DNA of 44,234 nt from Escherichia phage vB_EcoS_CEB_EC3a: the sequence record NC_047812.1. One strand, 5' to 3'. Shown in pieces: positions 4,446 through 5,113 of this stretch. The notes below the pieces were generated by a model. The model did not search any database and was not told where the DNA came from. It worked only from the letters and a program-made list of their open reading frames with translations. Made by a program: the position numbers and the translations under genes. Position 1 is the stretch's first letter. Every line of letters begins with the position of its first letter.

Positions 4446-4466
4446 ATGGAGATTGTTAAAAAGAGC

Positions 4467-4495
4467 TTGCATCACTGACCGGAATTATCTAATAT
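4467..4495 (+). promoter_or_regulatory. Sigma70-type promoter for the RNA gene cluster (TTGCAT-17 nt-TAATAT)
   Basis: TTGCAT 4467-4472, 17-nt spacer, TAATAT 4490-4495. Confidence 0.6.
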
Positions 4496-4504
4496 TAACC
4501 ACGT

Positions 4505-4661
4505 AGACAAACGAGGCCACCAGGTGGCAACGGCGCACGGAGCGCAACTACTAAGTCCGTTGCTCATTAAGTAGCGTAGGCGGCATTAAGACCTAGCGCA
4601 AATAGGCAGATTAACCGGCTGTATCAGGCAGCCCCGGAGCCGTAACCGGGAATCATCAAAA
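4505..4661 (+). ncRNA. Structured ~150-nt leader/unknown RNA preceding the tRNAs
   Basis: No credible ORF. Palindrome GCCACCAGGTGGC, 7-bp stem GCAACGG...CCGTTGC (4528-4564) enclosing GCGC-acgga-GCGC, direct repeats CATTAAG..TAGCG, hairpin CCCGG-agccgtaa-CCGGG. Confidence 0.3.
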
Positions 4662-4736
4662 GCTCTGCTAGCTCAACAGGACAGCAGCAACGACCTTCTA
4701 AGTCGTAGGTTACTGGTTCGAATCCAGTGCGGAGCG
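4662..4736 (+). tRNA. tRNA-Arg (anticodon UCU)
   Basis: Hand-folded cloverleaf. 7-bp acceptor GCTCTGC/GCGGAGC, anticodon stem ACGAC/GTCGT with loop CTTCTAA, T arm ACTGG-TTCGAAT-CCAGT, CCA encoded at 4737-4739. Confidence 0.85.
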
Positions 4737-4745
4737 CCAAATTAA

Positions 4746-4844
4746 CGTCGCGTTGCTAATGTTGGTTAAAGGGTGGAGCTTATACCTCCATAAAGCAATC
4801 TCCAGATAAGAGATGTAACGCAGGTTCGATTCCTGCCGCGACGA
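4746..4844 (+). tRNA. Aberrant 99-nt tRNA-like gene (possible Ile anticodon UAU or GAU; may be a pseudo-tRNA)
   Basis: Perfect 7-bp acceptor CGTCGCG/CGCGACG, canonical T arm GCAGG-TTCGATT-CCTGC, CCA encoded. The D region is poor, and two competing anticodon hairpins exist (TGGAG-CTTATAC-CTCCA and ATCTC-CAGATAA-GAGAT). Confidence 0.5.
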
Positions 4845-4862
4845 CCAATAAAGGAGTTCATT

Positions 4863-5045
4863 ATGTGGGATGTGAAGTTGTCCATTCGCTTAATGGGCCG
4901 CTCGTGCAAGAATTGCACTCAAGATTATATCGCGTCAGTTGCCGCAATCAGCGCTGAGGATGCGGTAGCGAAAGTAAAGGATATGTCAGGCGCTGACCCT
5001 GACACCCACAAATTCCTGGTAGCTTACGTTCGTGAGCAAAAGTAA
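4863..5045 (+). CDS. Hypothetical protein (60 aa)
   Basis: ORF track; SD AAAGGAG 6 nt upstream. Confidence 0.65.
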   Translation: MWDVKLSIRLMGRSCKNCTQDYIASVAAISAEDAVAKVKDMSGADPDTHKFLVAYVREQK

Positions 5046-5085: not shown

Positions 5086-5090
5086 TTTTA

Positions 5091-5113
5091 GCCCTCGCTT
5101 GAGGGCTTTTTTT
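5091..5113 (+). terminator. Intrinsic terminator
   Basis: GCCCTC-gctt-GAGGGC followed by T7. Confidence 0.8.

Follow-up and report, generated by a model that had tools for sequence, protein, structure and literature searches.

What kind of RNA is encoded at positions 4746-4847 of Escherichia phage vB_EcoS_CEB_EC3a (NC_047812.1), where a gene with the ends of a transfer RNA (tRNA) carries two anticodon-type hairpins, both of the isoleucine type? An earlier reading of the same 44,234-nucleotide (nt) stretch, which we refer to throughout as the window, was made from the letters alone and had left the choice between a decayed tRNA, a tRNA carrying a small insertion and a tRNA-like decoy. Here we show that this two-arm gene belongs to a family almost confined to phages, in which both hairpins are conserved side by side and the 5' strand of the D stem covaries with two alternative partners. 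We put forward, tentatively and short of even confidence, that the locus is a functional phage tRNA-Ile(UAU) that would decode AUA without lysidine, its second arm presenting the identity set of Escherichia coli isoleucyl-tRNA synthetase (IleRS).

The gene is composed of the following elements, numbered by position in the window and, within the RNA, by standard tRNA position.

4746..4847, + strand: the whole two-arm tRNA-Ile-like gene, 102 nt including an encoded CCA (Rfam 41.3 bits; family model 120.2 bits).
4746..4752, + strand: acceptor stem 5' strand CGTCGCG, pairing 7/7 with CGCGACG at 4837-4843; C4-G69 is present.
4753..4768, + strand: U8 U9, the D-stem 5' strand G10 C11 U12 A13 (4755-4758) and the D loop AUGUUGGUUA.
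4769..4773, + strand: AAGG and G26, the first candidate D-stem 3' strand (fold 1), pairing as C11-G and U12-A only, with G10 opposite G.
4774..4790, + strand: hairpin 1, the putative decoding arm, UGGAG/CUCCA with loop C32 U33 U34 A35 U36 A37 C38 (UAU at 4781-4783).
4791..4797, + strand: linker UAAAGCA, in which AAGC (4793-4796) is the second candidate D-stem 3' strand and A4797 is position 26 of fold 2.
4798..4814, + strand: hairpin 2, the proposed identity arm, AUCUC/GAGAU with loop C32 A33 G34 A35 U36 A37 A38 (GAU at 4805-4807) and C29-G41.
4815..4819, + strand: GUAAC, a 5-nt variable loop of class I length in fold 2 and the 3' flank of a long variable arm in fold 1.
4820..4836, + strand: T arm GCAGG-UUCGAUU-CCUGC.
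4837..4847, + strand: acceptor stem 3' strand CGCGACG, discriminator A73 (4844) and encoded CCA (4845-4847).

The general traits of a tRNA are thus present, including the 7-base-pair (bp) acceptor stem, the discriminator base, a T loop of the UUCRAxY type and a D loop with G16 and a GG (4764-4765) expected to contact the T loop; the sequence UUGCYAAURYUGG of this region is nearly invariant within the main family. The sequence-only reading had correctly identified the acceptor stem, T arm, discriminator and CCA, the two hairpins with isoleucine-type loops (UAU, and GAU with A33), and two alternative cloverleaves with some 24 nt of extra sequence. Its start at 4746 also stands, although the length of 99 nt that it gave stops at the discriminator, and the gene with its CCA is 102 nt. 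In place of a single anticodon arm and a length of ~73-95 nt, the RNA has two 5-bp/7-nt hairpins and exceeds that range. Its anticodons are TAT and GAT, and it has no CAT loop of the kind found in tRNA-Ile2 (anticodon CAU), the substrate of the lysidine synthetase TilS.

Standard tools do not see this gene as a canonical tRNA. The Rfam model RF00005 scores it well above its gathering score of 29 (with the whole window searched, E = 1.7e-5), matching model positions 1-71 with hairpin 1 as the anticodon arm and a 26-nt variable-region insertion that includes hairpin 2, and ARAGORN at default settings makes no call on 4746-4847. The covariance scoring that had been proposed therefore places the locus among tRNAs, and the confident canonical call that might have exposed a misfolding by hand did not appear. 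In its intron mode ARAGORN offers a tRNA-SeC(tca) with a 14-nt intron, and with relaxed thresholds a tRNA-Glu(ctc); both break the covarying hairpins, have no support in the family and are inconsistent with one another, and neither was adopted. A minus-strand open reading frame (ORF) at 4766-4918 and the hypothetical coding sequence that the record of phage BEK6 places over the gene were likewise rejected as coding, since compensatory changes in the RNA stems speak against such a function.

Homologues were collected by pattern scans of IMG/VR and metagenomes, which gave at least 174 distinct members; all counts out of 174 refer to those listed. The collecting patterns demanded most of the loop bases, AGATAA included, and the two widest scans also demanded ACCA; the first 29 members were gathered with neither loop 1 nor A73 as a requirement. 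For covariation, 100 distinct sequences with <93% mutual identity were aligned to a family-specific covariance model, which gives 100 distinct relatives scores of 56-123 bits. Two-sided changes are found at 7/7 pairs of the acceptor stem (99.9% of alignment cells paired), 5/5 pairs of hairpin 1 (88.6%), 5/5 pairs of hairpin 2 (99.6%) and 4/5 pairs of the T stem (99.8%), and the pair 31-39 that closes the loop of hairpin 1 is broken in 53/100 sequences. With all helices taken together 97.5% of cells are paired, against ~43% when partners are slid by 1-3 columns, and 0/500 shuffles reach the observed pairing. Because each hairpin covaries and their positions do not overlap, hairpins 1 and 2 are both real and coexist. 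The mutually exclusive anticodon arms of the sequence-only reading thus give way to two arms that stand together, and only the register of the D stem differs.

Such data leave virtually no room for a pseudogene left by tRNA decay, or for a tRNA-like sequence that arose by chance. The silence of ARAGORN, the abnormal length and the many close relatives that have no two-arm gene would suit a pseudogene, and decay had been among the earlier suggestions; it is refuted by a family of at least 174 members, in which every helix shows compensatory changes, the loops are invariant and the length hardly varies. Members measure 101-104 nt, with a few variants of 96-99 and 121-124 nt among the 174. In two variants of 122-124 nt (L086:9117-9240 and L141:4302-4423) the linker is extended to 17-18 nt and keeps AAGCA or AAGCG as its last bases ahead of hairpin 2, and an extra mini-hairpin lies 3' of hairpin 2. 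At L078:1981-2212 an interrupted copy is followed by a divergent intact copy, and AAAACG precedes each hairpin there.

Sequence is free to change in the stems but not in the loops. Loop 1 is YUUAUAN (UAU, U33) in 174/174 members, most of those bases having been required by the patterns, and loop 2 is YAGAUAA (GAU, A33, A37, A38) in 174/174, where AGATAA was required. A73 occurs in 174/174 and an encoded CCA in 172/174. Loop 1 and A73 are also invariant in the first 29 members, where neither had been a collecting requirement. U33 is near-universal in decoding tRNAs, and loop 2 has A33 in its place. A second phage isoleucine tRNA loop without U33 was seen in the canonical tRNA-Ile(GAU) of Vibrio phage Pylo (L008:2232-2307), which has C33 (loop CCGAUAA). 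The UUAU of loop 1 is complementary to the AUAA of loop 2; this carries no independent weight, because it is inherent to any NAU-A37 loop, and since both loops are invariant a kissing interaction between UUAU and AUAA lies beyond the reach of covariation.

What alternates in this RNA is the partner of the D-stem 5' strand, and hence which hairpin takes the anticodon-arm position. In register 1, the Rfam fold, G10 C11 U12 (A13) pairs with the bases that directly precede hairpin 1, which read WAGG in the majority of members. This stem is paired in 62.5% of cells, with double changes present: 11-24 pairs in all 100 sequences (98 C-G), 12-23 is UA in 84, CG in 6 and UG in 1, and 10-25 pairs in 14/100, G10 being unpaired in the other 86/100. 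Across the family G10 stands opposite G or A in 147/174 members, with C11-G and U12-A as the only regular pairs; a complete canonical fold-1 D stem is found in 22/174, and some of these D arms are of class II type, such as GCCGAGAGGUUAAGGC.

In register 2 the AGC before hairpin 2 supplies G10-C25, C11-G24 and U12-A23 (4755-4757 with 4794-4796) and one nucleotide is left as position 26; hairpin 2 then takes the anticodon-arm position and is followed by a 5-nt variable loop of class I type. The register 2 stem is paired in 99.3% of cells and all 3 of its pairs are changed on both sides (GC 94, AU 2, UA 2; CG 98; UA 94, CG 6); in a first parse it could be formed in 79/79 members. The weak D stem noted earlier for both folds is therefore a property of fold 1, with its 2-3 bp, and not of fold 2. 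The comparison with relatives once suggested for choosing between the folds supports both hairpins, and between the D stems it gives the higher pairing to register 2. Where the D-stem 5' strand varies, both partners vary in step with it (GCCG/AGGC/AGGC, GCTC/GAGC/GAGC, GTTT/AAAC/AAAC and GCTT/AAGC/AAGC), and for U10 and A10 variants a partner is available in register 2 only. Evaluated fold energies of -24.9 and -25.5 kcal/mol leave a gap of ~0.5 kcal/mol that does not decide between the registers. RNAalifold also extends hairpin 2 (G50-U71, C51-G70, with a bulged A); we did not adopt this extension, whose bases are invariant in the first 29 members. In the wider family its 3' partners vary (CGAAU, UUAAU, GUAAY) while AGC stays fixed, so that AGC is not conserved for its sake.

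The simplest description of the gene is a tandem duplication within a tRNA-Ile, giving one acceptor, T-arm and D-loop body with two successive units of D-stem 3' strand, N26 and anticodon arm, both of them retained. When unit 2 is removed in silico, ARAGORN returns Ile(TAT) in 169 constructs, and when unit 1 is removed it returns Ile(GAT) in 167; it makes no call on 151/174 full-length members, calling GAT in 8 and TAT in 7. It is because deletion of either unit yields a canonical tRNA-Ile that the gene looks like a tandem duplication. The earlier idea of a small insertion was right in form and understated in content, for the extra sequence is a second copy of this unit and is itself under selection. 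Excision of one unit during processing was considered and discarded, the stems of hairpins 1 and 2 being unable to form a hybrid arm; to our knowledge there is no bacterial mechanism that would excise one such tRNA unit.

Would fold 1 alone suffice? In a static, class-II-like tRNA(UAU), hairpin 2 would simply be a long variable arm and IleRS would charge the RNA despite U34; loop 2 might then serve as a handle for some other factor, be it a phage protein, a nuclease of tRNA processing or a modification enzyme (one that makes t6A37 or acts on U34), or pair with the anticodon loop. Rfam aligns the gene in fold 1, two divergent members (L306 and L300) are restricted to it, the 22 members with a complete canonical D stem fit it, and the four-base complementarity between the loops could be counted in its favour, were it not shared by any NAU-A37 loop. 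We nevertheless regard this alternative as unlikely. Its D stem would have just 2-3 bp, with the G10 mismatch in most members, and the AGC before hairpin 2, conserved and covarying with G10 C11 U12, would be left unexplained; the segment 3' of hairpin 2 has the class I variable-loop length of 5 nt in 120/174 members, and no partner protein is conserved beside the gene.

The long stem-loop of fold 1 also invites a comparison with class II tRNAs, and with it a recoding tRNA that, like the nematode nev-tRNAs, would be charged by leucyl-tRNA synthetase (LeuRS) or seryl-tRNA synthetase (SerRS), neither of which reads the anticodon, and insert leucine or serine at AUA. There are 29 nt between the anticodon and T stems in fold 1, including the covarying 5-bp hairpin, so that the class II hallmark of a long variable stem-loop is present there. 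This long extra arm, A73 and the UAU anticodon are all compatible with recoding, some divergent members have tRNA-Ser-like D arms, and nev-tRNAs with an Ile(UAU) anticodon take leucine (PMC3333845). Yet a Leu, Ser or Tyr anticodon and a variable stem set 1-2 nt past the anticodon stem are lacking, the anticodon being UAU and the linker 6-7 nt in 147/174 members. The extra stem begins 5-6 nt past the anticodon stem, which is not the spacing of the variable arms in Leu and Ser tRNAs. An invariant isoleucine-type loop on an extra arm is required by neither LeuRS nor SerRS, and the benefit to a phage is not obvious. We consider recoding highly improbable.

The opposite simplification, in which only fold 2 matters, would make the RNA a tRNA-Ile(GAU) variant reading AUC and AUU through hairpin 2, with hairpin 1 as an accessory insertion in the D loop. 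The register 2 D stem is indeed the best conserved, hairpin 2 is paired more consistently than hairpin 1 (99.6% against 88.6% of cells), and the full-length ARAGORN calls include the 8 of Ile(GAT). We judge this reading very unlikely all the same: loop 2 has an invariant A33 where U33 is near-universal, the complete and invariant anticodon loop 1 would go unexplained, and a hairpin at the elbow would probably interfere with the contacts that the ribosome makes there. In Pylo, WD615, Xoo-sp13 and L032, all of which also have a canonical tRNA-Ile(GAU), another GAU reader would moreover be redundant.

A division of labour between the two arms is suggested by codon use and by isoleucine identity. 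Per 1000 codons the window has 9.0 ATA and 11.4 AGA; in E. coli the figures are roughly 4-5 for ATA, about half the phage value, and roughly 2 for AGA. The other tRNA gene of this phage is a canonical tRNA-Arg(UCU) immediately upstream, and because the two tRNAs match the two most host-discordant codons of the phage, AUA reading is the natural assignment for hairpin 1. The usual phage tRNA-Ile is of the CAU type and depends on host TilS (PMC10688831). The bacterial tRNA-Ile identity set comprises A73, C4-G69, U12-A23, G16, U20, U21, C29-G41, G34/k2C34, A35, U36, A37 and A38 (PMC9976931 Table 1). In register 2, with hairpin 2 as the anticodon arm, the sequence contains A73, C4-G69, U12-A23, G16, C29-G41 and GAUAA, each of them lying in hairpin 2 or stacking with it, the numbering of U20 and U21 being uncertain in this RNA; hairpin 1 departs from the set at U34, G29-C41 and C38. 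C29-G41 is found on hairpin 2 in 12/12 members from cultured gammaproteobacterial phages and on hairpin 1 in none. For E. coli IleRS, kcat/Km is 360-fold lower for tRNA-Ile2 with UAU than with LAU, and in bacteria with a UAU anticodon the IleRS is altered (PMC3575796 and Table 1 therein). The full set of aminoacylation features argues, as far as sequence can, for a tRNA that could be charged.

These observations can be joined in a single scheme, which we regard as possible with appreciable doubt: a bistable tRNA in which the GAU-type arm would serve in the register for charging and the UAU arm in the register for decoding, AUA being read with neither the lysidine pathway nor an adapted IleRS. 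In register 2, with the D-stem 5' strand bound to the AGC before hairpin 2, host IleRS would take the RNA for tRNA-Ile(GAU) and charge it with isoleucine. On switching to register 1, in which the AG ahead of hairpin 1 would bind the 5' strand, the UAU arm would occupy the anticodon-arm position and read AUA. Hairpin 2 would then become a long variable arm, a shape that ribosomes tolerate in class II tRNAs, whereas the D-loop hairpin of register 2 would probably clash with the ribosome at the elbow, and A33 would bar the second loop from decoding. AUA would in this way be read independently of host TilS.

Several points weigh against this scheme and against the assignment on which it builds. 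We know of no bistable tRNA that separates charging from decoding, which gives such a switch a low prior, and we can only guess at a role for the invariant A33. Register 1 is the only one open to L306 and L300, so that register 2 is not universal, and the matched changes in both partners could come from independent duplications in each lineage, with no selection for two registers. The identity elements vary, C4-G69 being present in 46/174 members and G16 in 80/174, and most members with the loop UAGAUAA have G29-C41 instead of C29-G41. An unmodified U34 would misread AUG as well on E. coli ribosomes (PMC3575796). Finally, a third local hairpin, GCUA/UGGC, is paired in 94.3% of cells and uses the invariant GG. 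We did not adopt the D hairpin that RNAalifold draws there (GCUA-AUGU-UGGC), since GG is universal in tRNAs and 2/4 of the pairs vary on one side only; it could exist as a transient structure.

The distribution of the family is that of a phage tRNA gene. A 111-nt query was matched over the full length, at 76-98% identity, in cultured phages of widely differing kinds, belonging to the Drexlerviridae, Schitoviridae, Autographiviridae, Stephanstirmvirinae and Ounavirinae and including a Xanthomonas jumbo phage and 128-kilobase (kb) Vibrio phages. Among them are Rogunavirinae phages such as Opt-79; ESCO41 and ETEP102; Klebsiella phage KP13-26; four Vibrio phages, namely Pylo and River4 (128 kb), 12VC501 (N4-like) and WD615; the T7-like phiM1 and the FelixO1-like Arno162 and Wc4 of Pectobacterium; and the 309-kb Xanthomonas phage Xoo-sp13. 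In these cultured phages the two-arm gene lies within or beside tRNA genes, often adjoining a tRNA-Arg(UCU), with the exception of phiM1, where it is the sole tRNA gene, with capsid genes on one side and tail genes on the other. Since phiM1 has no other tRNA gene, the two-arm gene appears to need host factors alone. No match was found in 5,426 complete E. coli genomes, and of nine pattern matches in 185,579 species genomes (one per species) only four are real members, in two Pasteurellaceae genomes and two metagenome-assembled genomes; these four are probably prophage or phage contigs. Most inspected phage records leave the gene unannotated and only five label it tRNA-Ile. In Pylo it is an unannotated gap within a cluster of 25 tRNA genes (L326 12534-12634), and in BEK6 a hypothetical coding sequence (CDS) is drawn over it (L002 1758-1871, - strand).

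A gene restricted to phages and patchily distributed among them might also act against host defence, as an anti-defence decoy whose isoleucine-type loops absorb a host nuclease, or as a nuclease-resistant tRNA that evades one, with A33 making loop 2 uncleavable or a tight-binding inhibitor. Nuclease-resistant phage tRNAs with altered anticodon loops have been reported, A33 is invariant where U33 is expected, and the tRNA-Ile(GAU) of Pylo likewise departs from U33. We hold this alternative, which the sequence-only reading had raised, to be quite unlikely. Nothing in the data points to a nuclease, no nuclease specific for tRNA-Ile surfaced in the literature searched, and we know of none. Nor would a decoy have any need of a 7-bp acceptor stem that covaries perfectly, of A73 and an encoded CCA, or of a UAU loop that is canonical and has U33. 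The frequent tRNA-Arg(UCU) neighbour fits a supply of tRNAs for rare codons.

The source phage is a T1-like coliphage of ~44 kb in the subfamily Braunvirinae of the Drexlerviridae. The order on the + strand is small early ORFs, tRNA-Arg(UCU), a 6-nt spacer, the two-arm gene, a 60-codon ORF, a terminator-like hairpin and the terminase genes; the two tRNA genes are probably part of one transcript. The neighbouring features are as follows.

4662..4739, + strand: canonical tRNA-Arg(UCU), separate from the two-arm gene (ARAGORN; Rfam 55.5 bits).
4741..4848, strand not applicable: 108-nt segment present or absent among Braunvirinae (alignment with six relatives).
4863-5045, + strand: 60-codon ORF of unknown function (PHROG 2919).
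5090-5107: terminator-like hairpin before the terminase genes.

A PHROG scan of the ORFs neighbouring the two-arm gene returned the small terminase subunit and otherwise just families whose function is unknown, and because relatives that have no two-arm gene carry the 60-codon ORF too, this ORF is no dedicated partner. The two-arm gene is exactly missing from most close Braunvirinae relatives; PCEc3, PsgS01F and BEK6 carry it. The 108-nt segment is flanked by CCAA repeats, at 4737-4740 (the tRNA-Arg 3' end) and 4845-4848 (the two-arm gene 3' end), and a precise difference with such bounds suggests recombination between tandem tRNA 3' ends, as loss or gain. At the equivalent site of phage vB_Ec-G8 (L003, ~1841-1925) there is a different insert of ~85 nt, which ends with a second copy of the tRNA-Arg 3' end, GCGGAGCGCCAA, and does not match the family model. 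Upstream of tRNA-Arg, a stretch of ~215 nt (4446-4661) has no convincing ORF, is 87-98% conserved in relatives and holds the inverted repeat GCCACCAGGTGGC at 4517-4529; Rfam gave no match to 4446-4661, a permissive threshold included.

Among anticodon-reading synthetases the same tRNA loop nearly always sets both the amino acid and the codon, and for isoleucine this coupling of charging to decoding forces bacteria to keep an essential TilS for AUA. If our reading is true, separate arms for charging and for reading would be a new solution to the isoleucine AUA problem, a natural precedent for orthogonal tRNAs in which the anticodon can be changed while synthetase recognition stays intact, and a tangible example of a tRNA whose conformational switching is functional. 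Because the family is missed by ARAGORN, mostly unannotated and in one case buried under a spurious CDS, candidate AUA decoders are undercounted in inventories of phage tRNAs and in analyses of codon usage. The family itself, its anatomy and its dual-register covariation are secure and ought to surprise those who specialize in tRNA. Extra-arm phage tRNAs may not be limited to isoleucine; the calls of ARAGORN also include an Arg(CCT) of 99 nt (L026:3645-3743, - strand) and a His(GTG) of 95 nt (L040:7348-7442, + strand), both of them over-long phage tRNAs in which the variable region is ~25 nt.

How, then, does the two-arm RNA relate to the isoleucine tRNAs already known? With canonical tRNA-Ile(GAU) it shares A73, U12-A23, a YNGAUAA loop, a 5-nt variable loop and the T arm, as well as C29-G41 in members from gammaproteobacterial phages. 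It differs in having A33 instead of U33, a 19-nt hairpin plus ~5 nt in what would be the D loop, and a family-specific D region, UUGCUAAUGUUGG. With tRNA-Ile2, which has the anticodon CAU and receives lysidine from TilS, it shares the presumed task of reading AUA, and both often accompany tRNA-Arg(UCU) in phages that use AUA more than their host does; unlike tRNA-Ile2, the two-arm RNA has the anticodon UAU, would have no need of TilS and is 25 nt longer. Another parallel is the tRNA-Ile(UAU) of bacteria lacking tilS (Mycoplasma mobile and suppressor strains of Bacillus subtilis), in which UAU reads AUA without lysidine (PMC3575796; PMC3919564). Those tRNAs are of canonical size and rely on an adapted IleRS, with Arg or Lys for E. 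coli W905, or on tolerated poor charging, whereas the host IleRS of the two-arm tRNA is unadapted and it is the tRNA itself that bears an extra, GAU-type arm.

In shape, fold 1 resembles class II tRNAs (Leu, Ser and Tyr) and nev-tRNAs, with a long stem-loop between the anticodon and T arms, and in nev-tRNAs an arm of this kind even goes with an Ile(UAU) anticodon (PMC3333845). The two-arm extra hairpin has a 5-bp stem and a 7-nt loop of invariant sequence, whereas Leu and Ser variable arms are conserved in shape only, and, unlike class II tRNAs, the anticodon stem is followed by a linker of 6-7 nt usable as an alternative D-stem strand. The unmodified human mitochondrial tRNA-Lys likewise offers two secondary structures from one sequence (PMC9976931), yet its alternative fold is an inactive misfold, while both two-arm registers give a cloverleaf with compensatory changes. 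In the literature searched, no phage tRNA was described as having two arms of the anticodon type, and the gene is known so far just as an occasional automatic tRNA-Ile annotation. We class it as a tRNA of unusual architecture, outside every described subclass.

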